Positions 6,432 to 53,697 are shown, counted from the stretch's first letter. The stretch is DNA of 64,000 nucleotides from Candidatus Hodarchaeum mangrovi (GCA_016839515.1 JAEOUE010000197.1:12766-76765), one strand, 5' to 3'. The notes: generated by a model not told the origin, from the letters alone. Translations and numbers: made by a program.

Positions 6432-7250
6432 TTAAGGGATTAAATAACTCAAAGTAATAAATAAGATGTTTCCAATAAGAATTTCTGTGATGAAGCCAAG
6501 TGTAAGGATTAGAATAAAGGGGTAGGATGGTTGAACCCAGATAGTTTGTTTCTTTGTGTTTTTTATAGAAGTAATAATTAATTTTTTTCGTTTAAAATCA
6601 TTTTCAGGATTATCTAAACCTAATCGAAATTTTATTCTCCAACCAGTATCTTGATCATATTCTTCTAAAAAGTCAAAATGCCATGGCTTAGTTTCCATTT
6701 CAGTACTAATTTTAACCGTATTTCGTGGATATCCAATAAATAAAACAGCTATTTTGTTTTTCAGAGATTCTTGTTTAAACTTATATAAATCAGACTGAAT
6801 TAACAAATGAAAGCAATTATAGAAGAAAAGAATAAATGGTACCGGTACAGTAAGCAAGATAGCATTTGACAATAAAGAAAAACTACGGGGTACTATTTTT
6901 ATTAGTACTTCAACTCTATTATCACCTAGAATAAAAACAGGAACTGTCATTGGTGAACAAACAGCAATAGCTATTAATGCAAACATATCTGCACCTCCCC
7001 ATAACCCTCCCAAAAGAAGAATTAGAGCGATTATAATTGCAACGATTAAGTTTCCACTCCAGTTTATGAAATAATTAAAAAATGGTTCTTTATTAAGGAT
7101 AAATGTAAGTATCTGTATTAAATGAAGAATAATCCCTCCAAAAATCATTATTAACCAAACCCAGTCCGCAACTTCGCGATATTTGATGTCAAAATAGGAA
7201 GCAATAAGGAGAAGGAATAATGAAAAGGATATAAGTATAATACCAATCAT
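6432..7250 (-). CDS. Prepilin/prearchaellin peptidase, A24 family (PibD/FlaK-like)
   Basis: SYFDIKYREV and WGGAD aspartate motifs, multiple TM segments, C-terminal IWVQPSYPFI. Confidence 0.92.
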   Translation of the reverse strand: MIGIILISFSLFLLLIASYFDIKYREVADWVWLIMIFGGIILHLIQILTFILNKEPFFNYFINWSGNLIVAIIIALILLLGGLWGGADMFALIAIAVCSPMTVPVFILGDNRVEVLIKIVPRSFSLLSNAILLTVPVPFILFFYNCFHLLIQSDLYKFKQESLKNKIAVLFIGYPRNTVKISTEMETKPWHFDFLEEYDQDTGWRIKFRLGLDNPENDFKRKKLIITSIKNTKKQTIWVQPSYPFILILTLGFITEILIGNILFITLSYLIP

Positions 7251-40040: not shown

Positions 40041-40664
40041 ATCTTCATTAGAGGTGTCATCCTCAAGATTTGCTTTTATACAATCCGAACATAATGTATA
40101 ACCATTAGTTACATTTAGAAATTCGGAATAATTACCACAATCATCACAAAAGCCTTTAAGTTTTGGGTATTCTAATTCATTTGTTGTATTTTCTATTAAA
40201 AGTTGTTCTAGTCTAATTCTCATAAGACCAGGTGCAAATTTTAAAATATCATTAGTTGACACTATTCCAAGTGGTTTGGATAAATCATTGTTTTCAACAA
40301 CAAGAATTCGTTCAATATTTCGTTTAGCCATATATAACATACAATTCTCCAATGTTTCATCAGATGAAACATAAGCAATTGGATGGGTCATCACATCTTC
40401 AACTAAAATTATGCCAGGATCAAGAGCACAGCCAACAACTCGATTTATAATATCACCTTTGGTAATAATTCCTAGGATCTGTTCATTTTTTATGACTACT
40501 GATCCTACATTATGTTCTTTCATTAGTTTAGCAGCTTCTGCAACGGGTTGATTTCTTGGCATTGAAATAATCCTAGATTCTTTTTTTAGTAAATGCTTAA
40601 TTATTACCTCATTTTCTCTTTGAATCACAGTATAAAGACACTCCTTGATTTCATGATAACTCAT
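40032..40664 (-). CDS. CBS-pair protein with C-terminal Zn ribbon
   Basis: Two CBS repeats; GFCDDCG...LCSDC. Confidence 0.88.
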   Translation of the reverse strand: MSYHEIKECLYTVIQRENEVIIKHLLKKESRIISMPRNQPVAEAAKLMKEHNVGSVVIKNEQILGIITKGDIINRVVGCALDPGIILVEDVMTHPIAYVSSDETLENCMLYMAKRNIERILVVENNDLSKPLGIVSTNDILKFAPGLMRIRLEQLLIENTTNELEYPKLKGFCDDCGNYSEFLNVTNGYTLCSDCIKANLEDDTSNEDLD

Positions 40665-41060: not shown

Positions 41061-44000
41061 TTAGAAAAGAGTTGTAGGACGTAATCCAATCTCAAATACC
41101 TGACGCTTATTTATTTCTAGTAATTTTATCCAAGAGTCTAAATATTGCGAAATACTTGAAGCATAATTTTCTTCTAGTTGCGTTATAATTTGTGTGTATC
41201 GCAATACCCAGCCTTCAGAAAGAGTTAACCCGATCTTTTCTTGTCCACAGGATGAACATTTACCTGATAGAGGGATACGTCGGAAGTTTCGGTTACATCT
41301 TAGACATCTAAAAGGTTGAGAGAAGAATTTTTCTAAAGAAGAGTTATATTTTTCTAAAAAATCGTTTTCTAATATTTTTTCAACAAACTCACTCTCTTGA
41401 GTACCCTGAATTTTTTTAAGGATTGAAAGACTTGATTGAATCTTTGAAATAAGTTTACTCTGTTTAAGCGGATTACTAATATTAAATCCTGAGATGTTGT
41501 CAATCTTATGAATTTTTGGATAAGAGTAATTTAAATTAGAAATTTTGTAGACCAGAAGATCTTTTTTGGTAGGATTACTTTTTAATTCTCTGAAAAATAG
41601 TAGATTCATAGGAATGGATTCACTCATTGCATAGAATGACAAATCTTCCCAAGAATCTGGCATATTCAAAACCATAGGGACATCCATTGTTCCCCCTCTA
41701 GTAGTGGGAATAAATTCTTCAGAAAAATTAATTAAAACATCAAGTAGAAGAGTAAACGAGTCTATGTCTCCATTACAGTTACGTCCCTTTAATTTATGCC
41801 AAACTGGATGTGCATAAAGAACATCAGTTGTGGTAGAACCAATAATTCGTCCGATCACTCCAACCTTAGAAAAAGGGGAAATTCCGACAATCAAAGAACC
41901 CATTAGATCTTGGAAGGATTTTAATCTGAAATAGGCTGGCAAATCGTAAAATTCAGTTAATTCATCATCAATAAATTTAGTTAGTTTTAAAAGAAATTTT
42001 TCAGATGACTTACTAATAATAACATCATATGGAAAGAGTTCTATTAATTGATTTTCATTTTCTAGCTGCTTTCCTTCAATATCATGGTCATAACCAAGAC
42101 GGATAAGATCTTCAATCGATGTTCCTACTTCCAGAGGTTTGAAACATAATAAGGGGGCATTTGTAGTATCAAACCGACTAGTTCCATCTTTATAGACATA
42201 TATATCATGTCTTGCTCTCAAAACACCTTTGTTGAGATTCTCTGGAATTTTATTTTTAGTATTAAGATAAGAAACCGCTTTAAATTTTTCTAAATTTGAA
42301 ATATCACTTTTATTTACCTTTAGCAGTTCCTCAAAGGCTACAGAATGTGGTTTAGAAGGAACACCATAATTTCCACATACAGGACAATTTTTTGTTTCAA
42401 AAGTATGGTTATTTCTGCACAAAAGTTTTTGAGTTGTTTCTTGATTACAGTCTGGGCAGTAAACATAATAAACTGTTTTTTGACAGGACGAACAGTATCG
42501 GTTCGAAAGGTTAAGAATTACTGCCTTTTCTTTTATTACTTTTAATAAATTTCTTTGAGACCCTCCTAAGGATCCGATGGGAAAAAGAACGTGAGATGGA
42601 GGATTTATATGACGAGGTTCAGCTTTTTCTACTCGAACTATCTGAGTACCAAGTCTACGTTTTGATTTTGATCTTATTGGTACTCCGATTAATTTAGATA
42701 CAATTTCCTCAGTCTCATCCTCAATGGAGAGATTATTTATTATTTGATCTAAATCAAGATTTTCATCTTTTAAACGAGTTAAAATGTGCTGAAAATTATC
42801 AAATTCAATCCTTTCATTACTAACAGAAAAAGGAACACCTAAAAAACTTAGAATCCTTTTCATTTCATCATTATTGGGAATTTTTGGTTCTTCATTCTTA
42901 ATAATATGGTCTAATAAAAGAATTAAATCACTAATAGCTATATTATTCCAATTAAAAGAAAATTTAGGGTGCAAAGGCACTTTTGTTAATTTAGATATCA
43001 AATAAACTTTTTCAGGATTCAATTTAAAGACTGATGGATTATCAAGACAACTTTTTAAAATATTGAAGTCAACAGATAAAGCTCGTGCTAAATTTTGAAT
43101 CGAACCAAATTTCCTTATTGAGGCATTAATCACCTCCATTGCCCACCATTCCTCGGTCCAGGAAGATATATCAAAAGCTTCCTGATCAGGAATATCATCA
43201 GGACAAAGTAATAATTCTCCTAATTCCCAGATTTGTATGATTCTATTTTCATATTCTTTAAATGTTTCAATATTGTCAATCCGTACTAAAGAGCCATCTT
43301 CAATTGTTACTAAAGGACCTGTTAAACTAGAAACAGGAAGTGTTATTAAATTTCGTTCTATTAAGTCAATTTTTATTGACGTTCCTGGCGAAATGATTTT
43401 TAAAAGCATCATTGTCGCTGGATTTACACCAACTGAACCAAATCCAGTATTACGTGTGCGTCCATACCTTAATTGAAACCCCCCTGGACCAGATGATTTT
43501 GATAACAATGGTTGAGTACCTCGAATTTCTCGATCACCAAAAACTAGTTTATTCTTTTTTACAAAATGAAAACTTCTATCTAACCAGTTCCATTCTGGAA
43601 TTTCAGCTAAAATTTTATATCGAGTAATCAGGTTTATATTATCCATAAAACGTTCTAATGCTACACACATTCCCATTCTTAATTGGTTTGATAGAGGTGG
43701 AAGATTTCTATATTTAACAACCTCAATTCTTTCATAGGATTCACCTGAGATTTCAATACCAATATTTTGGAGTATTAATTTCGCTAAATCCTTTTTCAAA
43801 TCAGGAATTCGATCACTTAGCTCATAATAAAGCTCTAATTCCTCAATATATCTTCCTATCATTTCAGGTGTAGCGTTAAATCGATTTAGATGCAAGATTC
43901 TGCGTAGGTAATCCGCAATTAGAACAACTAATCCTATTACTTCCCCAGGGACATAACGAATAGTATTGGAAAAAAAAATTGTCAAATGTGAAGTCTTTTC

Positions 44001-44381
44001 TGAAATAGCTATTTTTGGAATAGCCTCTTCGGGAACAGAAATCAATCCTTGACTTAAGATAACACATGCGCTTTGGAGTGCAATTAGAATTAGCTCCTCT
44101 CGAGGCAATTTTAAATAATAACCGTTTACTATCTGTTTGGCTATTTCTGCTGCAAGTAAAAGTGAGTTCTCATGGAAAACGATGTTTGATGGCAAATTTT
44201 CTTCTAAACCAGCAATATTTATGATTGAGGAAATTCTTAACTTTACAGAATATGTTATTATCGATTCTACGTTACATCTTGGGTCATATTTCCGATTTCG
44301 TGCTTGTTGTGCTAAAGAAAATTGATTGTTCAATGATTTTTTTATCTGTGTAACATAATTGGTGAATTCTGGAAAAATCAT
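41061..44381 (-). CDS. polC: DNA polymerase D large subunit (DP2) homolog, divergent and possibly inactive
   Basis: GGFQLRYGRTRNTG, W.EEWW, VPLHP, HVLFPIG..GG.QR, KGVLRA.H...YKDGT.RFD, RGG.MD.P and the C-terminal FRC..C...RR.PL.GKC are retained, but the catalytic motif reads GRNCNGDID. Confidence 0.9.
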   Translation of the reverse strand: MIFPEFTNYVTQIKKSLNNQFSLAQQARNRKYDPRCNVESIITYSVKLRISSIINIAGLEENLPSNIVFHENSLLLAAEIAKQIVNGYYLKLPREELILIALQSACVILSQGLISVPEEAIPKIAISEKTSHLTIFFSNTIRYVPGEVIGLVVLIADYLRRILHLNRFNATPEMIGRYIEELELYYELSDRIPDLKKDLAKLILQNIGIEISGESYERIEVVKYRNLPPLSNQLRMGMCVALERFMDNINLITRYKILAEIPEWNWLDRSFHFVKKNKLVFGDREIRGTQPLLSKSSGPGGFQLRYGRTRNTGFGSVGVNPATMMLLKIISPGTSIKIDLIERNLITLPVSSLTGPLVTIEDGSLVRIDNIETFKEYENRIIQIWELGELLLCPDDIPDQEAFDISSWTEEWWAMEVINASIRKFGSIQNLARALSVDFNILKSCLDNPSVFKLNPEKVYLISKLTKVPLHPKFSFNWNNIAISDLILLLDHIIKNEEPKIPNNDEMKRILSFLGVPFSVSNERIEFDNFQHILTRLKDENLDLDQIINNLSIEDETEEIVSKLIGVPIRSKSKRRLGTQIVRVEKAEPRHINPPSHVLFPIGSLGGSQRNLLKVIKEKAVILNLSNRYCSSCQKTVYYVYCPDCNQETTQKLLCRNNHTFETKNCPVCGNYGVPSKPHSVAFEELLKVNKSDISNLEKFKAVSYLNTKNKIPENLNKGVLRARHDIYVYKDGTSRFDTTNAPLLCFKPLEVGTSIEDLIRLGYDHDIEGKQLENENQLIELFPYDVIISKSSEKFLLKLTKFIDDELTEFYDLPAYFRLKSFQDLMGSLIVGISPFSKVGVIGRIIGSTTTDVLYAHPVWHKLKGRNCNGDIDSFTLLLDVLINFSEEFIPTTRGGTMDVPMVLNMPDSWEDLSFYAMSESIPMNLLFFRELKSNPTKKDLLVYKISNLNYSYPKIHKIDNISGFNISNPLKQSKLISKIQSSLSILKKIQGTQESEFVEKILENDFLEKYNSSLEKFFSQPFRCLRCNRNFRRIPLSGKCSSCGQEKIGLTLSEGWVLRYTQIITQLEENYASSISQYLDSWIKLLEINKRQVFEIGLRPTTLF

Positions 44382-45085
44382 GAAAGAATCCTAATCCCAT
44401 TAGGTAAAGTTACGTTAAGTATACCAATATTATTTATTGAAGTAAGTTTATCGAAATAGAACACTCCAGTTTGGTTTAAATATGGATTGGGTATCAATGG
44501 TATAGTTCCATTTAAAATAAAGATACTATAGGGATTTGTTGGCTGAAAAGATTCTCTTCGTTTACTAAAAATAAAGATCTGATTATCAAATACTTCAACA
44601 CGAGCATGGAATACTAAATTAAATATCTCTTCTATAGTTAGGGAAGTCGTCAAGCTTGTTAATTTTAATTTAAAGTTTGCTGAAACTTCACTAGAATAAA
44701 TATTTCCATTGGTCACATTTGTATATGGTGGTTGTTTTGCATTCATTTGAAAAGTTTCTTCAATAAATGAGAATTCCGCTAGTATACCTCTGGTTATTGC
44801 CAAATATTCTAAATTTTTCAAAAAATCTTTAATAGACAGTTTAGCATTTTCTTGAGACATTCCTGAGTTATTTTGCGTGTATTTGGATAAAATATATTCT
44901 AAAAAGTTTTGAATTTCCCTTTTAGAGTCGAAATATGGTTCTGAGAGAGATTCTCTATTAAATTCAAGTTGATTTACTTGTATGTTCATTAAAGCTGCAG
45001 CCATTGAAACAATATAAATCGCTATAAGCATTGTTGCTAAAATAAACATTTGCCCCTGTCTTGATTTATTAAATAACTTCTGCAT
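44378..45085 (-). CDS. Pilin-like protein with class III signal peptide
   Basis: KSRQG|QMFILATMLIAIYIV. Confidence 0.8.
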   Translation of the reverse strand: MQKLFNKSRQGQMFILATMLIAIYIVSMAAALMNIQVNQLEFNRESLSEPYFDSKREIQNFLEYILSKYTQNNSGMSQENAKLSIKDFLKNLEYLAITRGILAEFSFIEETFQMNAKQPPYTNVTNGNIYSSEVSANFKLKLTSLTTSLTIEEIFNLVFHARVEVFDNQIFIFSKRRESFQPTNPYSIFILNGTIPLIPNPYLNQTGVFYFDKLTSINNIGILNVTLPNGIRILS

Positions 45086-45607
45086 CTATATTTTCTCCCA
45101 TAAATAAAGTTTAACTAAATAGCCATTCTGAAATTGACCATATTCTGCAGATGTGTATGATCCAAGATGATAATTAATAATTACTCCCTCTCCTCCAGTT
45201 TGAAGTGCTGCAATATCTGCAGCTGAGCCTAAAATCGTGTTATATGAATCAGAAGGCACTCCATTGACTAAATCATGAGCAATAAGTATAAAACCATAAT
45301 TATCACTCAAAATAGAAGTAATATAGGCATCTAGAAGACTAAGAAAATAGGTTGCTTCATCTGAATAAATAGGATTGAATTTAAGATAAATAGAAGGTCT
45401 AAGATAGCCTGCTTCGTCAGCTGTGCTTAAAATGTCATAGCCAGTTCGATCTAGAAATTTATATGATTGAGGAGGATTTAAGCTTTGGTCCGCAGCATTA
45501 ATAAGCAATAGAGCGAGAACTAACATTAAAGAAACAGCTACCAATGTTTCAGCAATTTGTAACTGACCACGCTGTCTCCTTTTTTTTAAATATTTCATTT
45601 TACTCAC
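45086..45607 (-). CDS. Pilin-like protein with class III signal peptide
   Basis: KKRRQRG|QLQIAETLVAVSLMLV. Confidence 0.82.
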   Translation of the reverse strand: MSKMKYLKKRRQRGQLQIAETLVAVSLMLVLALLLINAADQSLNPPQSYKFLDRTGYDILSTADEAGYLRPSIYLKFNPIYSDEATYFLSLLDAYITSILSDNYGFILIAHDLVNGVPSDSYNTILGSAADIAALQTGGEGVIINYHLGSYTSAEYGQFQNGYLVKLYLWEKI

Positions 45608-46772
45608 TCCAAAGAGTTATTTGACATCGCATTAATAAACCACGGACAATCACAGGATAAGTTTTACTCAATAAAGCTTTGATTCTAATATTATCACTTA
45701 TATGACCCAAAGTATTATAATACTGTCCTTGTTCCTCTGTTTTATCCAAAATAGCTGGATAAGTTCCAATACCAACTCTATAATAATCCGTATATTGTGA
45801 AATACTAAGAAGTATGACAAGGCCAGTTTCTGGTAGTAATATTGTTTCATTTCCATCCCAAGATATAGACCCTAAATCTAGAAAATGTGATGAATATGAA
45901 TGTAATGTATCTTTGTAGATTATCGAAATGAAATGATTAACAGGTGTATCTGTTGTAGGTAAAGTATCGCTTACAAGCAAAGCTGAAGAATTAATGCCAC
46001 CTCCCCAAATAGTCGTACTTGAAGAAGATCCGATAAAAGCTTGAGGAAAAACAGAGTCTATGCTTCCCCAATTTACACCCCAAAGAACACCTGTCTCGGC
46101 TACTACCAAGATGACATGTTGTCCATCTGGATCATTAAAATGCGGAATCTCATACGTATAAGAACTCCCTCCAGTAGAATTCGTGAGTAGATCCTCTCCG
46201 TATAGCAATTGTGCATCTTTTAAGTTAACAACTATTACTTTAGAATTAGCTTTAGGGATTGGAGTATTGTAAGGATTTGTAACAACAAATTCTACTCTAT
46301 TATGGGTTTGATTTACACTGATTAGAGTAAGAGATATCTTTAGGCTTTGTTGAAGGGAGATTTGAAATTCTCTCTTTCCAGATAATTTTATAACATCTTT
46401 CAAAGTTTCATAATCATAATTATTCATTCCAGAGATAGTAGAAATTCCCGTTCCACTAATAAGACGAGCAATTTTGGCAGCATCCAGAGCAAAATATCCA
46501 TAATAATGACTAGTGGCTAAACCGAAATTATTAGGTAAATTTTTTAGATATCCCCAATCATCTGTTCCTGATTCCTGTAATATCATACGGCTAAAATTGT
46601 CGAGATCATCATATGAGATTGTCCCTACATCAGTACGATTAATATTAGATTGAATGTTAATTATAATAAGGAGTAATTGTGAAAGCATTAACAAGAAAAG
46701 GAAAAGACTGATGACAAAGTCCACAGCTCTCATTTGTCCTTTTCGTTTTTTGTTTAAAAGTTGAAATATCAT
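45600..46772 (-). CDS. Large pilin/adhesin-like protein with class III signal peptide
   Basis: KKRKG|QMRAVDFVISLFLFLL; G..DWG and FGLA motifs, Ig-like insert. Confidence 0.82.
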   Translation of the reverse strand: MIFQLLNKKRKGQMRAVDFVISLFLFLLMLSQLLLIIINIQSNINRTDVGTISYDDLDNFSRMILQESGTDDWGYLKNLPNNFGLATSHYYGYFALDAAKIARLISGTGISTISGMNNYDYETLKDVIKLSGKREFQISLQQSLKISLTLISVNQTHNRVEFVVTNPYNTPIPKANSKVIVVNLKDAQLLYGEDLLTNSTGGSSYTYEIPHFNDPDGQHVILVVAETGVLWGVNWGSIDSVFPQAFIGSSSSTTIWGGGINSSALLVSDTLPTTDTPVNHFISIIYKDTLHSYSSHFLDLGSISWDGNETILLPETGLVILLSISQYTDYYRVGIGTYPAILDKTEEQGQYYNTLGHISDNIRIKALLSKTYPVIVRGLLMRCQITLWSE

Positions 46773-46814
46773 TTATGCTTCCCATCATATTGTGATAATT
46801 TGTTAATTAACATC

Positions 46815-47261
46815 CTAAGAAATATCATCGGTTGATCCAACATTAGAAACTTCTAGCTGAATTACAATTTCCTCCAATTTATCCTTTAATTCAAGTAAGG
46901 TGGTTTCTAATTCAGTTAGCTGTAATCCTTTCTCTAAAAGAGTTGTTGCTTGAGCAATTAACTCATCTGCTTTTTCAGCTTTCTCTGATCTTATATTTGA
47001 AGTGATCTCTGATAGTGTATTCACTTTTAAAGTTAATTCAGAGATATTTTTTTCCATAATTCCTAATCTTCCTTCAATTGGTGCAAAATCGACTTCTACA
47101 GGGCCAACTGCAACATTAGGAGCTGAAGAAGAGATTGGTTTTGGTAATGAACCCCCTGAACCCATGCCTTGGACAAGTAGAAATTCCATATTAGTAAGTT
47201 TGTCTTCCAAACTAGATATTTTTTCTAATATTTCTGTTAATACCTTTTCATCTTTACCCAT
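46815..47261 (-). CDS. Cytoplasmic coiled-coil protein within the pilus operon
   Basis: Heptad-rich with a G/S/P linker and no TM segment. Confidence 0.7.
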   Translation of the reverse strand: MGKDEKVLTEILEKISSLEDKLTNMEFLLVQGMGSGGSLPKPISSSAPNVAVGPVEVDFAPIEGRLGIMEKNISELTLKVNTLSEITSNIRSEKAEKADELIAQATTLLEKGLQLTELETTLLELKDKLEEIVIQLEVSNVGSTDDIS

Positions 47262-47277
47262 TATATCACCATTTATC

Positions 47278-48234
47278 CTAGAAAAGCAGAACAGTTATTT
47301 TAAAGAAAGCATAGGAGATAATCAATAGAATACATGAATGTCTCAAGCCTATTTTAGCATCTCCTTCACCCATTTTTCCTGAAATTAATCCAGCAAATAT
47401 TGCTTCAATAATCATAAGGTGGAAAAAGAGTAATTGAAGTCCTGCAACATTCGATGGGAGTTTTGCAGTTGCTACTTGTCCAGCTGAAACAGCATCAACT
47501 ATTTGAACTGCAAGGGTTTGGAAGAAGGAATAAAGTAAGATAATCATTACAATCGCAAATACAATGAAAGAGGCATATATTATCCAAGTATAAGGTTTCA
47601 TTGCTGAAAGTCTTTCCCGTTTTAAACCTAAAATCTCAGAAACATGGTTATGTGCAGATTCAAATACATCTTCAATGGCTCCACCTGATCGTTCAGCCTC
47701 TAAAATCAACAGCGAGGTTCGCTTCATTAAAGGAGTGTCTGCAGTTTCAGTTAAACTTCGAAGAGCTTTGCTAAAAGGTATTCCCCAACTTATTTTAGCG
47801 GCCATTTTTTTTAATTCTGGTGTAAGAGCTCCATATTGATGCTTTGAGGATTCCATTATTGCTCTAGGTAATGGTAAACCTGTTTTTTGAGCATCAGAAA
47901 TCTCTCTAAGAAGAGAAGGAATGTGGTCATCAATATTATCCCGCCATTTTTGATTCGAATGATAAGCTAGAGCAGGTATTAAAAGGAGAGCTAGAGCTAG
48001 TAATACTGTAATATCTAAAACATCAAAAAACTTGAAGATAGGATCTAAAGAGACCTCACGTATAGTGAATAAGTAAGGATCATTTTCAATAGGAGGATAA
48101 ACAGGTTCTGTTCTTTCAACAATATGCTGAATAACTGGACTATAGAAAAATAATGAAATCACTAATGTAACAAGAAACAAAAATATTGAGAGTATCCAAA
48201 TCCTTTGTTCACCTTTTGTAGTAAGTTTTCCCAT
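47278..48234 (-). CDS. Type IV pilus membrane platform protein (TadC/PilC-like)
   Basis: IP.LLREISDAQKTG, YGALTPEL, AERSGG, GLISGKMGEG....GL.H. Confidence 0.92.
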   Translation of the reverse strand: MGKLTTKGEQRIWILSIFLFLVTLVISLFFYSPVIQHIVERTEPVYPPIENDPYLFTIREVSLDPIFKFFDVLDITVLLALALLLIPALAYHSNQKWRDNIDDHIPSLLREISDAQKTGLPLPRAIMESSKHQYGALTPELKKMAAKISWGIPFSKALRSLTETADTPLMKRTSLLILEAERSGGAIEDVFESAHNHVSEILGLKRERLSAMKPYTWIIYASFIVFAIVMIILLYSFFQTLAVQIVDAVSAGQVATAKLPSNVAGLQLLFFHLMIIEAIFAGLISGKMGEGDAKIGLRHSCILLIISYAFFKITVLLF

Positions 48235-48250
48235 TCTTTCTTGCCTCCAT

Positions 48251-49174
48251 TTAAATTTCTCGTGATATTGTTGAAATTAGTAAAAGCATCACTGTTAATA
48301 GGATTGGCATCAAAAAATAGGTAAGTAGAACCATAATTATTCCACCTACAGTTGCATCCTTAGTGATAACAGCTAAAATAGCAATAATAACAACAAAGAA
48401 AAGAGGTGAAACTACTCCGATGATCATAAAAATTTCTGATAAAACCCCTAATTGTTCAATAAACTCTTTTGTTTCTTCTTCTTTAAGTTTCATTAGCGCT
48501 TTACTCTCAGCTGTTAAGAAAAAAGTTAAATCACCACCGCTAGTCACTGTTGCAGACATACCATCAAGAAATTTGGAGAATCTTTCTGAAGGAGACCGTT
48601 CGCTCGCAGTTCTAAGTGCTTTTAAAATATCATAACCAAAAATTTCAATATCACGTGTTATACGTTTACTCTCCTTGGAAATTTCAGGAGCGACTGATTC
48701 TTCACCTGCAAGTGAGTAGAATAATCTATCTGGGGGAACTCCAGAACTTGACATAGCAGACAGATAAGAAGCGGTTGATGGTAAACCAGCTTCAATAAGA
48801 ATTTTACGATCAGCAGCCTTCATTTGAGGCCAATATATGAATGGAATATAGGTTATTATGGCAAAAAATATTCCTAGTATTATGCCTATAATAATACTCA
48901 ATAATAATTGTCCATTGGCGTTGATTTGAGGAGTTAATGATTGAACAAGTATTAATACTAATCCTGTACTAAAAAATAAGACTAATAATCCAACAATAAT
49001 TGAACTGAGTATTGCACTTCCAAGATATGCACGAACAGAAATGTCTATTCCTGCTTTTTTTAAACTTCGACCTAATCGCTTAAACTTTCCCCCTTCAATC
49101 CATGGTTCTAGATACCTCCCAAAACGGAGATAACCAACTCGCCTTATAAACTTACTCAAAGTAAAACGCTCCAC
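48251..49174 (-). CDS. Type IV pilus membrane platform protein (TadB/PilC-like)
   Basis: LKKAGI, LP...SYL.AMSSSG, FGYDIL.AL, SPS..F..FL, SGGDL..FL. Confidence 0.92.
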   Translation of the reverse strand: MERFTLSKFIRRVGYLRFGRYLEPWIEGGKFKRLGRSLKKAGIDISVRAYLGSAILSSIIVGLLVLFFSTGLVLILVQSLTPQINANGQLLLSIIIGIILGIFFAIITYIPFIYWPQMKAADRKILIEAGLPSTASYLSAMSSSGVPPDRLFYSLAGEESVAPEISKESKRITRDIEIFGYDILKALRTASERSPSERFSKFLDGMSATVTSGGDLTFFLTAESKALMKLKEEETKEFIEQLGVLSEIFMIIGVVSPLFFVVIIAILAVITKDATVGGIIMVLLTYFLMPILLTVMLLLISTISREI

Positions 49175-49182
49175 AACGATTT

Positions 49183-50691
49183 TTAGACAGCTTTTAGTTC
49201 TCTTTTTGCTCGATCTACAGTTTCTAAAGGATTTTGATAATAATTGTTAATAACTTCAGCAACTTGTGTGTAATGGGCCAATTTTTTCTTTACTTGCCAT
49301 CTTAAAATGGTTTTTCGCCTCTCAATTTCTTCATAAACTTGGGAATCTGTCAATCCTTGGCCTTCTTGTATTCCTTCAAGAATATAAGACCTTCCATAAT
49401 TGATAAAGGCGTCTTCGCGTGCATTCCAACCAAAAACTTTATTTGTTATTAACTCTGTGGTTACCGGATCAATTCCCACGATTTCTGTCGCCTCAATAAC
49501 CCTTCTTACTTGCTTATCCCCACGTCGAACCTTTCGAAGGACAATAAGCAGATTTAGAGTTTGAATTAATGTTCGAGGAATATTCATGGGTTCATTTTCA
49601 AGTCGACGTATAGTTCCTGTAACACTATCTCCGTGTATTGTACCCATTCCTGTATGTCCTGTTGCCATGGCTTGGAAAAGGTTATAAGCTTCCGAACCAC
49701 GAACTTCACCAACAAATAAATAATCAGGCCTTTGTCGCAATGCAGCACGAAGTAGATCATACATTGATACTTCCCCACGTCTAGATCCATCTATTTCTCG
49801 TCCACCATATCCTTCTCGAGCCACGGCTGGAATCCAATTTTCATGTGGTAAATGAAGTTCTGCAGTATCTTCAATAGATACTATTTTCATTCCTGGTCGA
49901 ATAAACATTGCTAAACTATTAAGAAGTGAAGTTTTACCTGCAGCTGTACCTCCAGCGATAACTACTGAATTTCTATTCTCTAAAGCATACCAAAGAAACG
50001 CTGCAAGATCTTCATCAATTGTATTGAATGTTATCATATCAGTTATGGTTAGTGGATCAGAACGAAATTTTCTGATTGTAAAAGTACTACCCCTTTGAGT
50101 AACTTCTCTACCATATGTTAACTGCAGACGACTCCCATCAGCAAGAGCTGCATCTAATAAAGGTCGTGCAACACTAATATGACGTCCTGAACGCTGAGCA
50201 AGCTTAATAATAAAGGCATCCAGATCATCTTCGTTATCAAATTTTATATTAGTTTGAATACTTTCAAATTTTCGGTGCCAGATATAAACAGGAATTCCAA
50301 CCCCATCACACGAAATGTCTTCAACATTATGGTCCTTTAGCATTGCATCTATAGGTCCAAATCCCACAAAATCTCGTGTTATATGATAATTGATTTTGTC
50401 AAATGTTTTCTCATCTAATTTTAAACCGTAATTTTTAGCAATACCGATGACTTTCTGTCTTAAGTAATCTCGAGCAACCTCAGGGTTTTTAAGAACATTA
50501 AAGTCGACATCTAATTCTTCTTCTAATGTACTCTTGATCATATCCAAAATTTCTTTCTCTTTAGCACTAAGAGGAACTTCAACGACGGTATATTTAGTTT
50601 GTTTTGATTCTGGGTCAGTTGCAACTAGTGCGTAACTAAATGGGGGGATTAAAGGATATGTTTCACGAATTAAACTACTCGATTCGGACAT
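49183..50691 (-). CDS. Type IV pilus assembly ATPase (archaeal PilB/FlaI/VirB11 family)
   Basis: VEDISCDG, FTIRKF, GGTAAGKTS, SIEDTAE, ALRQRPD...VGEVRG.EA, AMATGH. Confidence 0.96.
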   Translation of the reverse strand: MSESSSLIRETYPLIPPFSYALVATDPESKQTKYTVVEVPLSAKEKEILDMIKSTLEEELDVDFNVLKNPEVARDYLRQKVIGIAKNYGLKLDEKTFDKINYHITRDFVGFGPIDAMLKDHNVEDISCDGVGIPVYIWHRKFESIQTNIKFDNEDDLDAFIIKLAQRSGRHISVARPLLDAALADGSRLQLTYGREVTQRGSTFTIRKFRSDPLTITDMITFNTIDEDLAAFLWYALENRNSVVIAGGTAAGKTSLLNSLAMFIRPGMKIVSIEDTAELHLPHENWIPAVAREGYGGREIDGSRRGEVSMYDLLRAALRQRPDYLFVGEVRGSEAYNLFQAMATGHTGMGTIHGDSVTGTIRRLENEPMNIPRTLIQTLNLLIVLRKVRRGDKQVRRVIEATEIVGIDPVTTELITNKVFGWNAREDAFINYGRSYILEGIQEGQGLTDSQVYEEIERRKTILRWQVKKKLAHYTQVAEVINNYYQNPLETVDRAKRELKAV

Positions 50692-50835
50692 TTATTCCTA
50701 ACCTTCTATTTATTAATTAATTAATGGAGTTAAAAATTTCTCATTAGGTTAACAATTTTATTTAGATTTTAATTTAATTATTTATGTATTTGATTTTTTA
50801 GATGTGATTATTAGGATTATGTAATATCTCAAATA

Positions 50836-51288
50836 TTAAGTTATCTGGATATTAAGATCCAGCCCAATCTTTCCTATAGATAAAATAAGTATCTCATTGA
50901 CGCTTTGAAAAGCTGTATTTGCCACAATAAGGTTGAATTTACTGTTGATCATGAACGATTGTATACGATTTACTTCATATTTCGTGGTAAAGCCATGAAG
51001 TTGGATTTCATTATTAGATACATTAGTTATTTCAATAGAATAACGAAGTCCTTGACCAAGTAGCGATGGGAGATTTATATATTGGTTTATTGTAATATTT
51101 CCAGAGTCACAAAGTTGCAATGATTGCTGGATTTGACTTTGCAGAAATTCGAGAATTTCTCGCATTTCTAGATTAGCTAAATTATCCCGAAATTCTTCAC
51201 TTAAAGTAAGAAACATTGAATTAGTCAAAATCACTAAGCTTAAACCTAGAGTAAAAATCATCATAAAAGTAATATATTGAGACGCCAT
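50836..51288 (-). CDS. Pilin-like protein (N-terminal hydrophobic helix)
   Basis: MASQYITFMMIFTLGLSLVIL followed by an amphipathic helix and a beta-rich body; operon position. Confidence 0.65.
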   Translation of the reverse strand: MASQYITFMMIFTLGLSLVILTNSMFLTLSEEFRDNLANLEMREILEFLQSQIQQSLQLCDSGNITINQYINLPSLLGQGLRYSIEITNVSNNEIQLHGFTTKYEVNRIQSFMINSKFNLIVANTAFQSVNEILILSIGKIGLDLNIQIT

Positions 51289-51303
51289 ATTATTTTACTC
51301 TCA

Positions 51304-52248
51304 TTATGTGCTTAAACCAATTTCATAGACAATTTTTTGAACAACAATATTGAAATAACTTATTTGAGTAAGCCCTCTTATATTTTGTGTGCTCCAAAGA
51401 TCATAAGAAACGGTACCTGTATCACGAATATCTTCCCATAATAAATTTAACTGAGAGATTGCAGGGTTACTTGGAAGGGTTATTGGGGAAGATGTAAGTT
51501 GAGTAGAATGAACTTTTATTTGAGTGGATGAAGAATGGATAACATCAAAATTTGCTGAAAGGGAAATAAAGAAAACTTGGAATTTTATTTCAGGCTCAGG
51601 AGACGTAGAGACAGTTAAATGAATAGAAGTCCTGTAATTCAAGATGATATGATGCCTTCGATCATTCAAGTGACTTAGAGTCAAATTTGTCAATTCTTGA
51701 TATTCAGTACTAGCAAAAGCACCTGTTAAAAAAACTGGATCACGATGTTGATATGGATCAGGGCCTAACAGGTATTTTGATGTCCCTCGTGGTACTATTG
51801 TTCTTGGACTGTTATAAACCCAATCAAGTGATTTGACTGGATGTCCTGAATCAATATTTGTGAAATTATAAACGATTTCCGAATCTTGATCAACTAGTTT
51901 TAAGGAAATATAGGCTGATGCAGGAGAAAATACTAATTTACCAGCAGATTTTTGAAAGAGTGTGGTTCGAAAGCCACCTGGGTCACCACTTTCACTGATT
52001 AAAGTTTTAATCGTTGTATCTAGATCAAGAAGGCTATTTTTTACCGTAGAAATAGCCTCCTCACTTTGAGCTCTTTCGATAAATGGTACAACCTGTATAA
52101 AGGTCATCATAACCCCTGTGATAATCAAGCCAAAGATTATTACAGTGGCTAAGATAGGAGATACAGCTTTTCTTTTATTGGATAGAAGTCTTACAATCTG
52201 CAAATAAAGAGGACCTAGGTAATGAGTAACCAAATTTAATCCCTGCAA
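51304..52248 (-). CDS. Pilin-like protein with class III signal peptide (exact start uncertain)
   Basis: KRKA|VSPILATVIIFGLII...VPFI. Confidence 0.85.
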   Translation of the reverse strand: MQGLNLVTHYLGPLYLQIVRLLSNKRKAVSPILATVIIFGLIITGVMMTFIQVVPFIERAQSEEAISTVKNSLLDLDTTIKTLISESGDPGGFRTTLFQKSAGKLVFSPASAYISLKLVDQDSEIVYNFTNIDSGHPVKSLDWVYNSPRTIVPRGTSKYLLGPDPYQHRDPVFLTGAFASTEYQELTNLTLSHLNDRRHHIILNYRTSIHLTVSTSPEPEIKFQVFFISLSANFDVIHSSSTQIKVHSTQLTSSPITLPSNPAISQLNLLWEDIRDTGTVSYDLWSTQNIRGLTQISYFNIVVQKIVYEIGLST

Positions 52249-52429
52249 TTGAAATATAAGTCTAATATATATTTTAGGGTTGTTAAATCCTGTATAGTTA
52301 TTACCCTAAAATATTAGATATAAGCATTTTTGTAATCCCTAAAACTCATGAATAAAATAAATTATAATTTAGTATATTGTTTATAAATTTTCTAAATAGT
52401 GTTTCCTAAAGATCAGGAGAGAAGTAAAA

Positions 52430-52500
52430 AAATCCCTGGGATTTATTTATCTATCCAAATTTCTAGGGAACTATCTTTATTTGAAGAAATCACTAGGGAA
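52430..52500. repeat. Palindrome plus direct repeats in the pilus/radA divergent promoter region
   Basis: AAATCCC-T-GGGATTT at 52430-52444; CTAGGGAA at 52463-52470 and 52493-52500. Confidence 0.45.
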
Positions 52501-52653
52501 ATATTTATTGAAGTATAAACTAAAGAACAAGAAGAATCTCACTTCCAATCAGAGTTTAATTTGACAAAATTATTTTAAGAAGAACATATAATCAGAAGGA
52601 ATGTTCTGGACTTAACAGTAAGAAAGAATAGAAATCTCAGGAAAGGGAATAAA

Positions 52654-53697
52654 ATGTCCCCAAAGAAAAAAATCGAAAATTCAGAGGACGTAGAAGAAGA
52701 GAAGTCAGAAGATAAGAGCAGAAAAACCTCTAAACTAACTAGCATTACAGATCTTCCAGGAGTTGGGCCATCGACTGCTCAAAAACTAATAGAAGCAGGA
52801 TTTTCCACATTAGAAGCCATAGCAACGGTTTCTGTTGGAGAATTAGCCTCAATTGCTAATATGGGGGAGAAAACAGTGACTAAAATAATCGAGTCAGCGA
52901 GGGAGGCCTTAGATATAGATTTTGAGACTGCTAAATCAGTCTTAAATCGAAGAAGAGAATTAGCTAAAATAACTACTGGAAGTAAACAATTAGATGAATT
53001 ATTTGGAGGAGGAATTGAAACTGGAGCTATAACTGAGCTTTATGGAGAATTTAGAACAGGTAAAACCCAAATTGCGCATCAATTATGTGTTACAGTTCAA
53101 TTGCCAAGAGAAAGAGGTGGTTTAAAAGAAGGAGATAATTTACCTAAAGTTGTATATATTGATACTGAAGGAACTTTTAGACCTGAAAGGATCGTGGCTA
53201 TGGCTGAACGATGGAAAGATGTATTAGAGGTAGATATAGCTCTTGAGAATATTCTACATGGAAGAGCTCACAATAGTGATCATCAAATGGTATTAGTGGA
53301 AAAGATGATTAAAGAATATATTCCTGTTCAGAATGTTCGATTACTAATTGTAGATTCGTTAATTTCGCATTTCCGTGCAGAGTATGTAGGAAGAGGAACA
53401 CTAGCATCTCGTCAACAAAAACTCAATCAACACATTCATACAATTCTACGTGCTGCTGAGGTTGGTAATATCGCAGTAATTGTGACTAATCAAGTACATG
53501 CAAAACCTGATCAATTTTTTGGCGATCCAACAGCTCCAGTAGGAGGGCATATTGTAGCTCATGCAGCACAAACCCGTGTTTATCTCCGAAAATCAAAAGG
53601 AGAAAGAAGAATTGCACGAATCGTTGATAGTCCCCTCTTACCAGAGAGTGAAGCAATTTTTGGGGTAACTGCAGAGGGAATAATTGATGTTGAATAG
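52654..53697 (+). CDS. radA: DNA repair and recombination protein RadA
   Basis: N-terminal Hh[51 protein letters not shown]. Confidence 0.98.

Follow-up and report, generated by a model that had tools for sequence, protein, structure and literature searches.

The 64,000-nucleotide stretch of Candidatus Hodarchaeum mangrovi DNA analyzed here (the window) is, on balance, best read as carrying a surface-filament operon with a vertically inherited, non-catalytic replisome gene co-transcribed at its end. That gene encodes DP2, the large subunit of PolD. The neighborhood looks, from its gene order, like a genus-specific accident and not a DNA-uptake machine, and nothing points to DP2 working with the filament or in DNA uptake.

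A filament gene cluster with DP2 at its end

Ten co-oriented ORFs occupy positions 41061-52248 of the minus strand in the ORF listing of the window (Table 1). They comprise five pilin-like genes, a FlaI-like ATPase gene, a FlaJ/PilC platform in two genes, a coiled-coil gene and DP2. An earlier note on this DNA had described the same ten pilus and DP2 genes, and the ORF listing agrees with it, as does Pfam for the ATPase, the two platform genes and DP2. The overlap that it saw between the last pilin stop and the DP2 start was read directly as ATGA, radA, placed about 400 bp off on the opposite strand, was measured at 405 bp from the first pilin ORF, and DP1 is indeed missing from the window, as the genome's only PF04042 match sits on another contig.

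Table 1. Features of the filament-DP2-radA region and the candidate peptidase gene, with positions counted from the first nucleotide of the window.
Feature	Position	Strand	Evidence or remark
Pilin-like gene 1 (314 aa as listed)	51304..52248	-	N-terminus [KR]R[GAS]|VSPVLATVIIFG / VSPVLATVIIFGLIITG kept in 13 relatives
Pilin-like gene 2 (150 aa)	50836..51288	-	Hydrophobic N-terminus MAS|QYITFMIIF kept in 13 relatives
FlaI/PilB-type assembly ATPase (502 aa)	49183..50691	-	T2SSE (PF00437) E 3.5e-36
Platform protein, N-terminal half of FlaJ/PilC type	48251..49174	-	T2SSF (PF00482) E 6.3e-16
Platform protein, C-terminal half of FlaJ/PilC type	47278..48234	-	T2SSF (PF00482) E 9.1e-18
Coiled-coil protein (148 aa)	46815..47261	-	Class-wide companion of the platform genes
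G|Q pilin-like gene (390 aa)	45600..46772	-	RRRG|QIRAVDFVVSLFLFLLML kept in 15 relatives
G|Q pilin-like gene (173 aa)	45086..45607	-	HRG|QLQIAETLVSVALMLVLALLLI kept in 15 relatives
G|Q pilin-like gene (235 aa), directly before DP2	44378..45085	-	RRG|QMFILATMLIA kept in 15 relatives
DP2, PolD large subunit (1106 aa), single copy, catalytically degenerate	41061..44381	-	Pfam, alignment
ATGA stop/start overlap, last pilin gene/DP2	44378..44381	-	Read from sequence
NCNGD acidic motif (N868-C-N870-G-D872; canonical N-C-D-G-D)	41766..41780	-	Ungapped alignment to 6hms_B
P836-F837-S838 replacing PHT steric-gate motif	41868..41876	-	Column comparison
Divergent intergenic region (405 bp), filament operon/radA	52249..52653	.	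ORF limits
radA (347 aa)	52654..53697	+	Rad51 E 2.6e-92, HHH_5 E 3.2e-15
Candidate class III signal (prepilin) peptidase	6432..7250	-	PF01478 match at 6930-7223

The label pilin-like was given to the five ORFs for their N-termini, which resemble class III signal peptides, are conserved in 13-15 relatives per gene, and consist of a basic-G/A|Q or |V motif followed by about 20 hydrophobic residues. For the three G|Q-type pilins that the earlier note had picked out, the R-G|Q N-termini are conserved in relatives. No Pilin_N match was found in the window, and none of the five ORFs reached the cut-off of any Pfam or NCBIfam family, including pilin-like gene 1, whose actual start codon probably lies further in than listed, and pilin-like gene 2, for which the sole Pfam match was a sub-threshold LTD. 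No DNA-binding domain was recognized in these ORFs by Pfam or NCBIfam either. An AF2 model of the 235-aa ORF (pLDDT 86.2) consists of a beta domain and a long N-terminal helix; a PDB fold search with this model returned nothing at E<=0.001.

As expected of a type IV filament (T4F) system, a secretion ATPase of the T2SSE/FlaI/PilB family (PF00437) is present, as is a polytopic platform, here made of two ORFs with one PF00482 domain each. The ATPase is 90-93% identical within the genus and has an orthologue in 78 of 83 genomes of the class. The platform ORFs cover positions 6-242 and 299-546, respectively, of the 555-position FlaJ model of NCBIfam, and the adjacent coiled-coil ORF, for which Pfam and NCBIfam gave no family, adjoins platform genes in 10 of 16 filament loci from other families (tblastn). 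A candidate class III signal peptidase, the genome's only PF01478 match (31.9 bits, over cut-off), is encoded 37 kb from the operon. In our reading, a Hodarchaeales-like Heimdall-group genus carries here an ordered T4F gene cluster, which would most likely build a surface filament. The cluster does not match an archaellum: archaellin (PF01917), which the earlier note had listed as absent from the window, has no match in the whole genome, the cluster holds no ArlH-like gene, and the ATPase scores 427.6 bits, below the cut-off of 550, with its top NCBIfam model, FlaI. The window likewise lacks a FlaH-like gene, its sole KaiC/ArlH-family (PF06745) match being radA itself, below cut-off.

Likely co-expression of DP2 with the pilin genes

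The spacing at the pilin-DP2 junction is -4 nt (an overlap) here; in 18 of 18 relatives a TGA is followed by a spacer of 5-7 nt, and a GAGG-like stretch often precedes the DP2 ATG. By comparison, the gap ahead of the ATPase gene is wider, at 144 nt. Because it is so tight, DP2 is probably expressed together with the three G|Q pilin genes, and the arrangement makes both co-transcription and coupled translation of the last pilin and DP2 likely; the translational coupling and operon membership proposed in the earlier note are thus plausible. Such joint expression weighs against our preferred explanation, which offers no reason for a replisome component to be made along with pilins. Alternatively, the overlap could be incidental, with most DP2 transcripts starting at a separate promoter within the last pilin gene, under regulation independent of the filament. 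Internal promoters are common in archaea, and in a genome as AT-rich as this one (29-36% GC) TATA-like sequences easily arise in coding DNA. However, a 5-7 nt spacer or an overlap in 19 of 19 genomes leaves no room for an intergenic promoter, and we regard separate expression as rather unlikely.

DP2 has lost its catalytic residues and is under purifying selection

All three Pfam domains of DP2 (PF03833, PF24844 and PF24846) are over cut-off, with E-values of 2.3e-79, 3.2e-73 and 2.4e-38, respectively, as is NCBIfam TIGR00354 (710.1 bits vs a cut-off of 702.15), and the protein aligns with P. abyssi DP2 across residues 5-1083 (E 4.4e-160). In the ungapped alignment to the latter (6hms_B), NCDGDED is replaced by NCNGDID. 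Residues D956 and D958 of DP2 are catalytic (PMC4996933), and PMC7708050, in the part drawn on here, reports that D964A or D966A abolishes activity and identifies PHT as the steric-gate motif. The first catalytic Asp, an Mg-binding residue, is absent in 18 of 18 DP2 sequences of the genus, and both are absent in 5 of these. Of the 150 best cluster representatives, 148 bear the motif region, and just 6 of them lack the first Asp, 5 being the nearest relatives. At column 837, the steric gate, 65/65 canonical representatives have H, and 15/15 genus sequences have one of F, T and I. When the comparison was extended to the 92 columns that are at least 95% identical in the 65 canonical DP2s, 61 were kept in at least 80% of the 15 genus sequences and 31 were not, with H837, R866 and D870 lost in all 15. 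Without its catalytic Asp and steric-gate His, this DP2 cannot count as an ordinary polymerase; judged by its residues, it is a pseudo-polymerase. For the same reason the earlier description of a repurposed PolD subunit is fair in the sense of repurposed or non-catalytic, while its link to DNA uptake was not supported.

The remainder of the protein is well kept. An unbroken ORF was seen in 15 of 15 full-length genus loci, dN/dS values of 0.09-0.27 (6 genus pairs) indicate purifying selection, and all eight Zn-finger cysteines (Cys630/633/642/645 and Cys1026/1029/1042/1045) are retained in 15 of 15 genus sequences. The barrel scaffold is kept under purifying selection, as are the Zn fingers and the DP1-binding C-terminal domain. 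That DP2 is dead yet under purifying selection points to some function other than polymerization.

The earlier note had called for a search for further DP2 copies. None was found: PF24846 has one match in the genome (91.32% complete), so that the window DP2 is the only one, and 17 of 18 genus genomes likewise hold one DP2 each. In the DP2 tree, support was 1.0 for the genus clade, 0.989 for the genus with its sister family, and 0.735 for nesting with other Heimdall-group DP2. By this phylogeny the window DP2 is a vertical orthologue of Heimdall-group DP2. A lone DP2 with such a placement was an outcome named beforehand as speaking against a competence role.

The probable DP1 partner and a possible nuclease role

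The genome's DP1 lies on contig C295, where it adjoins an Orc1/Cdc6-like ORF. Its motif III reads GEHD in 18/18 genus sequences vs GNHD in 11/11 others, and the remaining four of the five nuclease (PDE) motifs are unchanged in the genus. A complex model of DP1 with the DP2 C-terminal domain scored 0.73, vs 0.05 for the best of 3 controls, and so passes a mark that 58 of 80 solved complexes attained, as did 2 of 110 mismatched pairs; with the self-built alignments used here, these counts apply only roughly. The model runs gave at least 64% contact agreement and a partner pLDDT of at least 59, although a similar complex has already been solved, so the pass may reflect memory. The modeling suggests that DP2 probably still pairs with DP1. 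The two genes are about 7-10 kb apart on one contig in another family and 1.0-1.3 Mb apart in two closed genus genomes; DP2 has thus left the DP1 neighborhood in this genus, which we counted against our preferred explanation. Four PolB genes were found in the genome, one with a C-terminal CxxC...CxxC motif. The DP1-DP2 pair may persist as a non-polymerizing replisome or repair component, and DNA synthesis would fall to B-family polymerases, one of them Zn-finger-tailed, which fits Kazlauskas 2020. A dead polymerase joined to a possibly live 3'-5' exonuclease could have acquired a DNA-processing job, which, like the closeness of radA to the cluster, also speaks against the preferred explanation.

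A more specific version of such a job is a recombination or repair nuclease complex of DP2 and DP1, linked to radA, with the filament genes merely lying in between. The loss of polymerase residues alongside four of five unchanged PDE motifs is in keeping with it, radA falls inside the same conserved block, and a genome of the sister family encodes an SMC/Rad50-like AAA_23 protein (1001 aa) about 1.4 kb upstream of DP2, divergently and past a lyase gene. However, 8 kb separate radA from DP2, which is on the other strand, no radA was found near DP2 in 5 other-family loci or on 2 sister-family contigs, and the orc1/cdc6 gene next to DP1 is a replication context, which together make a radA-linked complex improbable.

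Gene order is conserved within one genus

Pilin-DP2 adjacency was seen in 18 of the 18 genus genomes whose flank is assembled, and long runs of window ORFs are collinear with genus relatives (46 consecutive with G009 and 24 with G002); conservation of the junction across the genus does not exceed that of the 30-47 kb around it. Outside the genus, DP2 adjoined filament genes in 0 of 5 DP2-centered and 0 of 16 filament-centered loci of other families. The filament cluster occurs class-wide without DP2, and about 830-870 kb separate DP2 from the ATPase gene in two closed genomes. On two sister-family contigs DP2 is degenerate and has no filament genes within 4.7-6 kb, its neighbors being a lyase and an SMC-like gene, or a GTPase and a tRNA synthetase. 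The pilin-DP2-radA order, whose conservation across Asgard genomes the earlier note had wished to see checked, is therefore confined to the genus and missing from the loci compared in other families and the sister family. Since DP2 of the sister family is also degenerate, inactivation is older than the filament adjacency. We suggest that the placement of DP2 behind the pilins arose in the ancestor of the genus and was then preserved within a large collinear block.

These data bear directly on the idea that the filament imports or exchanges DNA, with a non-catalytic DP2, possibly aided by the DP1 nuclease, binding or processing that DNA and handing it to RadA. Type IV pili aid the transformation of certain methanogens, 19 of 19 genus genomes place DP2 where its translation would be coupled to that of the last pilin gene, DP2 is catalytically dead but under purifying selection, most DP1 nuclease motifs are kept, and radA (77-83% identity in the genus) is divergent here and, in 2 of 16 other-family loci, from two genomes of one family, lies within 3.4-4.4 kb of the platform genes. 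However, the adjacency is limited to one genus and no better kept than its surroundings, DP2 degenerated in the sister family away from filament genes, and the filament cluster does without DP2 elsewhere in the class. A search for ComEC (PF03772) and DprA (PF02481), families that the earlier note had named, gave 0 matches in the 91.32%-complete genome, and the operon shows no obvious membrane channel for DNA. Moreover, DP2 has no signal peptide while the globular domains of pilins are extracellular, and modeling still places the DP2 tail on DP1 in the manner of replicative PolD. A DNA-uptake role thus seems quite improbable, and the competence-like module once proposed here is not supported, given a single vertical DP2, genus-only synteny and the failure to find ComEC or DprA. 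The bolder form of this idea makes dead DP2 a working filament part, which with a nuclease-competent DP1 would act as a cytoplasmic DNA clamp or processor passing filament-delivered DNA to RadA; we give it very little credence, although if true it would mean that a B3_Heim-lineage genus had turned a former replicase into part of a DNA-exchange system. That DP2 is a decaying gene heading for loss, as the missing catalytic residues, the long DP2 branches (mostly sister family, 2.3-3.3 vs a median of 0.75) and an in-frame TGA in one genus genome (L007) might suggest, is hardly credible and close to refuted by the full-length ORFs, the low dN/dS, and the retention of 61 of 92 near-universal columns and every Zn-finger Cys.

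Comparison with known systems

The Ced system of Sulfolobales is a DNA-import system, and Epd pili are an archaeal type IV filament system that offers a comparison case. Competence pili and DNA-import systems (ComEC/DprA transformation, Ced) share with this locus a type IV filament next to a recombinase gene; here, in contrast, the genome gave no ComEC or DprA match, and the pilins showed no recognizable DNA-binding domain. Archaeal type IV filaments (the archaellum with FlaI/FlaJ, and two-platform-gene pili such as subsystem 4A, PMC13705601) likewise have an ATPase, a platform, class III signal peptide substrates (putative ones here) and a signal peptidase, whereas the platform here is split into N and C halves and the pilins match no Pfam or NCBIfam model. 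Asgard genomes rarely have an ordered T4F locus, according to the part of PMC13705601 drawn on here; this one is ordered.

Canonical PolD DP2 (Pyrococcus abyssi, PDB 6hms/6t8h) and the window DP2 have in common the three-domain architecture, the Zn fingers and the DP1-binding C-terminal domain. The window gene differs in having NCNGD for NCDGD and PFS for PHT, and in being distant from DP1 and located behind pilin genes. PolD inactivation in the Heimdall B3/LC3 lineage is already published: Kazlauskas 2020 (PMC7544198), in the section drawn on here, describes a "Heimdall_B3/LC3-like" group with no active DP2 and a co-occurring Zn-tailed PolB (B10), ties DP2 inactivation to the gain of that PolB, and allows that DP1 of B3 may remain active. 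Our residue checks for DP2, DP1 and PolB concur for this same lineage, and in a public contig titled B3_Heim the DP2 is of the same type (RSCNGATDS), with the same pilin genes upstream. While that section covers two MAGs and leaves gene context unmentioned, the loss is seen here at residue level in 18 genus and 2 sister-family members, along with evidence for purifying selection and the T4F adjacency.

Parallels in kind are the polymerase module of eukaryotic Pol epsilon that has become inactive and the DP1-derived inactive B-subunits, in which, in the parts of PMC7544198 and PMC6355029 drawn on here, a replicative module is similarly retained as a non-catalytic scaffold after polymerase replacement. 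Dead DP2 may have a scaffold role of this kind, with the difference that the dead part here is the two-barrel DP2 core, whereas DP1 keeps most of its nuclease residues.

A type IV filament gene cluster ends in DP2

An ORF listing of the window combined with Pfam searches recovered ten ORFs on the minus strand between 41061 and 52248, all co-oriented and ending in DP2, with radA on the opposite strand beyond the first pilin ORF; the earlier note had described the same arrangement from the sequence alone, placing radA about 400 bp away. Features with coordinates are collected in the table.

Coordinates of the features discussed (window positions unless a contig or locus is named)
Feature	Position	Strand	Evidence or remark
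Prepilin peptidase	6930-7223		sole family match in the genome
NFACT/RqcH-like gene	38016-40040	+	downstream of DP2, conserved block
CBS-domain gene	40032-40664	-	downstream of DP2, conserved block
DP2, 1106 aa	41061-44381	-	all three DP2 domains (Pfam)
Overlap of last pilin stop and DP2 start	44378-44381		ATGA
Platform ORF	47278-48234	-	one T2SSF domain (Pfam); FlaJ model 299-546, C half (NCBIfam)
Platform ORF	48251-49174	-	one T2SSF domain (Pfam); FlaJ model 6-242 of 555, N half (NCBIfam)
Secretion ATPase	49183-50691	-	T2SSE (Pfam); best NCBIfam model archaellum FlaI
radA		opposite strand	begins 405 bp from first pilin ORF; Rad51 E 2.6e-92 (Pfam)
DP1, source genome	contig C295, locus L002:694-2280		beside Orc1/Cdc6-like ORF
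PolB, window's contig	C138:7776-8837		861-aa frame, YGDTD motif
SMC/Rad50-like gene, sister family	locus L064:4406-7411	+	1001 aa; AAA_23 E 1.2e-15

The two platform ORFs fit the N half and the C half of the FlaJ model, so two genes here encode what is a single FlaJ/PilC-type protein. The secretion ATPase scored 427.6 bits against the archaellum FlaI model of NCBIfam, which has a cut-off of 550. The remaining six ORFs, five pilin-like and one coiled-coil, matched no Pfam or NCBIfam family over its cut-off. The five are called pilin-like because of N-termini that are kept in 13-15 relatives each: the 390-, 173- and 235-aa ORFs (the G|Q pilins) carry R-G|Q and then a hydrophobic stretch of about 20 residues, the 314-aa ORF has [KR]R[GAS]|VSPVLATVIIFGLIITG and the 150-aa ORF has MAS|QYITF. 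An AlphaFold2 model of the 235-aa ORF from 15 sequences (pLDDT 86.2, pTM 0.74) showed a long N-terminal helix and a beta domain; Foldseek found no match to it in the PDB at E<=0.001, so no fold was assigned. Matches of this ORF to the PriX model (E 0.02, 15.2 bits, cut-off 50) and of the coiled-coil ORF to arcadin-4 (E 0.031) were dismissed as noise.

The archaellin family has no match anywhere in the genome, and the sole match to the KaiC/ArlH family within the window, below cut-off, is radA itself. With DP1 on another contig, the earlier observation that the window holds no DP1, archaellin or FlaH-like gene stands. By its ATPase, platform and peptidase the cluster is a type IV filament (T4F) system, and by the tests run it is not an archaellum.

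The gaps leading through the G|Q pilin genes to DP2 measure -8, 0 and -4 nt, with 42 nt before these genes and 144 nt before the ATPase gene. The last of them is the ATGA overlap previously reported, which we read again in the sequence; in 18/18 relatives the pilin TGA and the DP2 ATG are instead separated by 5-7 nt, the junction often reading t-c-g-TGA-g-a-g-g-a-a-ATG. Such gaps suggest a transcript that DP2 shares with the three G|Q pilin genes at least, and the overlap here together with the short spacer in relatives supports the earlier proposal that DP2 may be translated by coupling to the pilin. For 41061-50691, six metatranscriptome runs had a share of 0.00. Beyond DP2, the ends of the CBS-domain and NFACT/RqcH-like ORFs share 9 nt.

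Catalytic residues of DP2 have been replaced

In an ungapped alignment, K-G-R-N-C-N-G-D-I-D-S of the window DP2 lies opposite K-R-R-N-C-D-G-D-E-D-A of P. abyssi DP2 (6hms_B), and counting along this alignment identifies the replaced Asp as P. abyssi D956. D956 and D958 are the two invariant aspartates described as critical for polymerase activity in the available part of PMC4996933, and the available text of PMC7708050 reports complete loss of polymerisation both in Thermococcus 9degN PolD carrying D964A or D966A and in P. horikoshii PolD carrying D957A or D959A. The same text assigns the steric gate to H931 of a PHT motif, where bulky replacements (Arg, Tyr) abolish activity; in the window DP2 this motif reads PFS.

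The first Asp is absent from 18/18 genus DP2s, that of the window included. The motif reads N-G-D-[IV]-D in 13 of them, N-G-A-T-D in two, and S-G-N-I-D, N-G-A-N-D and N-G-V-S-D in one each, so that both Asp are lost in 5/18. The two sister-family DP2s read T-A-N-G-D-I-D and N-V-F-L-G-A-V. Other families of the class keep D-G-D-E-D, either without an intein (loci L020, L021, L023, L024) or after one (L025, L027). Of the earlier model, only the coupling and the unusual DP2 hold up, the latter with the first catalytic Asp lost throughout the genus and PHT changed to PFS in the window. Many other-family DP2 genes in the class carry an intein between N and C of the acidic motif, giving open frames of 1350-1750 aa with two family matches each; the genus and sister-family DP2 loci that were read have none.

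A search of 1.84 billion cluster representatives returned 886 proteins at E<=0.001. Among the best 150 of these, 148 included the motif region and only six missed the first Asp: five are the nearest relatives (40-54% identity) and the sixth is P0087, a 1152-aa representative, 30% identical to the window DP2, in which C-G-G-E-V-D replaces C-D-G-D-E-D. P0087 may stand for a second lineage whose acidic motif degenerated independently.

We then surveyed the 92 columns that are at least 95% identical among 65 canonical DP2 representatives, 61 of which are kept in at least 80% of 15 genus sequences. H837, R866, D870, G582 and P584 are among the residues lost in 15/15, as is the P-G of the P-G-K motif (341-343), whose Lys is lost in 14/15; the eight Zn-finger Cys among the surveyed columns and most barrel residues are kept in 15/15. 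Judged by its sequence, the window DP2 is CATALYTICALLY degenerate. A decaying gene was considered and rejected, given a full-length ORF in 15/15 complete loci and purifying selection, with NG86 dN/dS values from six pairs (0.093, 0.138, 0.105, 0.268, 0.075 and 0.206, with dS saturated in the last two).

DP2 is a sole, vertically inherited copy

The earlier note had asked for the other DP2 copies of this genome; the DP2 catalytic-domain family gave a single match in the source genome (91.32% complete, 6.09% contaminated). With the window protein as query, 30/31 genomes matched, and 17 of the 18 other genus genomes hold one DP2, which in one of them is split over two contigs. The DP2 match in locus L007, from the closed genus genome G015, contains one in-frame TGA that leaves an open frame of 868 aa; the gene may be truly broken or recoded there, or the TGA may come from an error in sequencing.

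A DP2 tree (FastTree, LG+gamma) was built from 85 sequences and 1137 trimmed columns, comprising 15 genus, 2 sister-family and 3 other-family DP2s and 65 canonical cluster representatives (1050-1260 aa), with intein-bearing sequences and fragments left out. Because the long sister-family terminal branches (2.3 and 3.3, median 0.75) make midpoint rooting misleading, the tree was re-rooted on a distant canonical representative. Support was 1.0 for the genus clade and 0.989 for genus plus sister family, a node that could in part reflect long-branch attraction; the nesting of both with other Heimdall-group DP2 received 0.735. The window DP2 is the sole copy in its genome and a vertical orthologue. 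Across a 251-genome phylum sample, the DP2 catalytic domain went unmatched at E<=1e-20 in two families (f19, 0/4; f13, 0/1), which fits the report, in the available part of PMC12680538, of some Asgard lineages without DP2.

The pilin-DP2 junction is confined to the genus

Pilin and DP2 genes are adjacent in 15/15 twenty-kb genus loci and in 3/3 further genomes; outside this count stand G005 and G017, represented only by fragments, and G006 (71% complete), which has no DP2, ATPase or DP1. The order is filament genes, DP2, CBS gene and NFACT gene, and radA is divergent on every contig long enough to include it. We also scanned named genomes with the alignment of genus DP2s, which gave 27 loci, a single DP2 protein as query having given no relative. 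At 19 of these, from genomes named Hodarchaeota, Heimdallarchaeota, Promethearchaeota and the like (Heimdallarchaeota archaeon B3_Heim among them), DP2 is 44-56% identical; orthologues of the coiled-coil, 390-, 173- and 235-aa ORFs directly precede it at all 18 loci with an upstream flank, the 19th being cut at its 5' end. The remaining eight loci (a Methanobrevibacter, Thermoproteota, Korarchaeum, a Hadarchaeota MAG and an unclassified archaeon) have no filament genes within a 3-kb flank. We accordingly place the genus, as Hodarchaeales-like, in the Heimdall group and not among the Lokiarchaea.

Filament genes were found in 0/5 DP2-centred loci of other families, and DP2 in 0/16 filament-centred loci (15 of other families, one of the sister family); in two closed genomes outside the genus about 830-870 kb separates the ATPase from DP2. 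Within the 4.7-6 kb upstream of DP2, one sister-family contig carries a beta-eliminating lyase and an SMC/Rad50-like protein, and the other a GTPase together with a class II tRNA synthetase. Over the class, sampled by 83 genomes and 21 loci of other families, DP2 and the filament genes were never adjacent outside the genus. The pilin-DP2-radA order put forward in the earlier note is accordingly universal in the genus and absent from the loci outside it. The SMC/Rad50-like gene is divergent from the degenerate sister-family DP2 and sits beyond the lyase gene, about 1.4 kb upstream.

Collinearity extends well past the junction: 46 consecutive of the 61 window ORFs of at least 100 aa (6432-53697) are collinear with the closed genome G009, and 24 consecutive ORFs (26533-53697) with G002, from the most divergent subclade. 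Background gene order is as conserved within the genus as the pilin-DP2 junction.

These results bear on whether DP2 has a real DNA-handling link to its neighbours. The best argument for such a link, to radA or to the filament, comes from the move of a dead polymerase, still under selection, away from the vicinity of DP1 to the end of a pilin transcription unit. DP2 is, on the other side, a sole and vertical copy, its adjacency is limited to the genus, and the ComEC and DprA families, which had been proposed as a search, have no match in the source genome, which leaves the DNA-uptake proposal unsupported. We regard a link to radA as improbable, and one to the filament as slightly more improbable still. 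The junction in the operon is a new observation, probably to be explained by history; should it be more than an accident, it would represent a second career for a retired replicase.

The filament cluster is class-wide

With an ATPase orthologue (E<=1e-60) in 78/83 class genomes, the filament cluster is class-wide. ATPase identity is 90-93% within the genus and 54-67% outside; the corresponding genus values are 46-55% for DP2 and 77-83% for RadA, and against G009 the ATPase is the most conserved of the 61 window ORFs; so strong a constraint is unusual for a pilus ATPase. In 2/16 filament-centred loci (L068, L069) RadA is encoded on the same strand as the platform genes, 3.4-4.4 kb upstream of them, and none was seen in the other 14. 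Both loci come from closed genomes of another family, in which the ATPase gene and the platform/coiled-coil/pilin module are convergent and about 3 kb apart. RadA thus occurs near the filament cluster in two different families.

In cultured Hodarchaeales, helical filaments of 15-25 nm with round tips are described on cell protrusions, at contacts with partner methanogens, their nature being left unexplained in the available part of the report (bioRxiv 10.1101/2025.02.26.640444). The window cluster offers candidate genes for these filaments, as a lead rather than a finding.

DP1 and PolB in the same genome

DP1 is single-copy in 19/21 genus genomes (E<=1e-10). Its PDE motif III reads G-E-H-D in 18/18 genus sequences (loci L118-L135 included) and G-N-H-D in 11/11 from other families; in the genus, Glu replaces the metal-binding Asn and the other four PDE motifs are kept (residue roles from the available part of PMC10721889). 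In two closed genus genomes 1.0-1.3 Mb separates DP1 from DP2; in another family the two share a contig, at a distance of 7-10 kb.

A complex of DP1 residues 130-528 and DP2 tail residues 940-1106 was predicted from our DP1 and genus DP2 alignments. It scored 0.73, the best of three controls scoring 0.05; the score mark is reached by 58/80 solved complexes and 2/110 mismatched pairs, counts that are only rough because custom alignments were used. Runs agreed in at least 64% of contacts, with partner pLDDT of at least 59, and the predicted interface takes in the invariant R1034-R1035-x-P1037 of the last Zn finger. Since like complexes have been solved (6hms and others), the pass may reflect memory, and the model shows likeness, not binding.

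The source genome has four PolB genes (five family matches). The PolB on contig C34 ends in a CxxC...CxxC motif, a tail that resembles the B10 group of PMC7544198 as its available text describes it. Another PolB lies on the window's own contig, about 4 kb left of the window start.

Discussion

We consider it reasonably probable that the locus joins a surface-filament cluster to a co-transcribed DP2 that acts as a non-polymerising partner of DP1, with PolBs synthesising DNA. The class III peptidase would cleave the five pilin-like substrates and the cluster would assemble a surface filament; DP2 would stay with DP1 in replication or repair, and DNA synthesis would fall to the PolB enzymes.

In eukaryotes the DP2 core has been lost, the DP2 tail is kept fused to PolB, and an inactive DP1 is kept. 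A lineage with both a dead DP2, full-length and under selection, and a nearly intact DP1 may be a living intermediate for the eukaryotic transition, and the locus gives residue-level detail on the dead DP2 across about 20 genomes. The Heimdall group is treated as close to the origin of eukaryotic polymerases in the available parts of PMC7544198 and PMC12680538.

The cluster, ordered and conserved class-wide, contrasts with section 7 of PMC13705601, according to which ordered T4F loci are rare in Asgard genomes. In the literature covered, which comprised parts of articles without their supplements, we found no report of a DP2 gene ending a T4F operon, in line with the earlier note, which knew of no described pilus operon containing DP2.

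Compared with the canonical DP2 family, the window DP2 shares the architecture and departs from it in two catalytic-site tests. Inactivation of DP2 is already known for the Heimdall B3/LC3 lineage: the available text of PMC7544198 sets a 'Heimdall_B3/LC3-like' group against the main DP1 clade by an inactive DP1, no active DP2, or PolBs with a Zn C-terminus (B10), reports active DP2 and DP1 in other Heimdallarchaea such as AB125, and allows that the B3 DP1 may still be active because all five motifs are present. The available part of PMC12680538 makes no mention of an inactive DP2 that we could find. Our residue checks agree with PMC7544198, within that text, and extend it. The window DP2 belongs with the inactive PolD of this described group, and the new element is the position of a dead DP2 at the end of a filament operon, from which it would be expressed.
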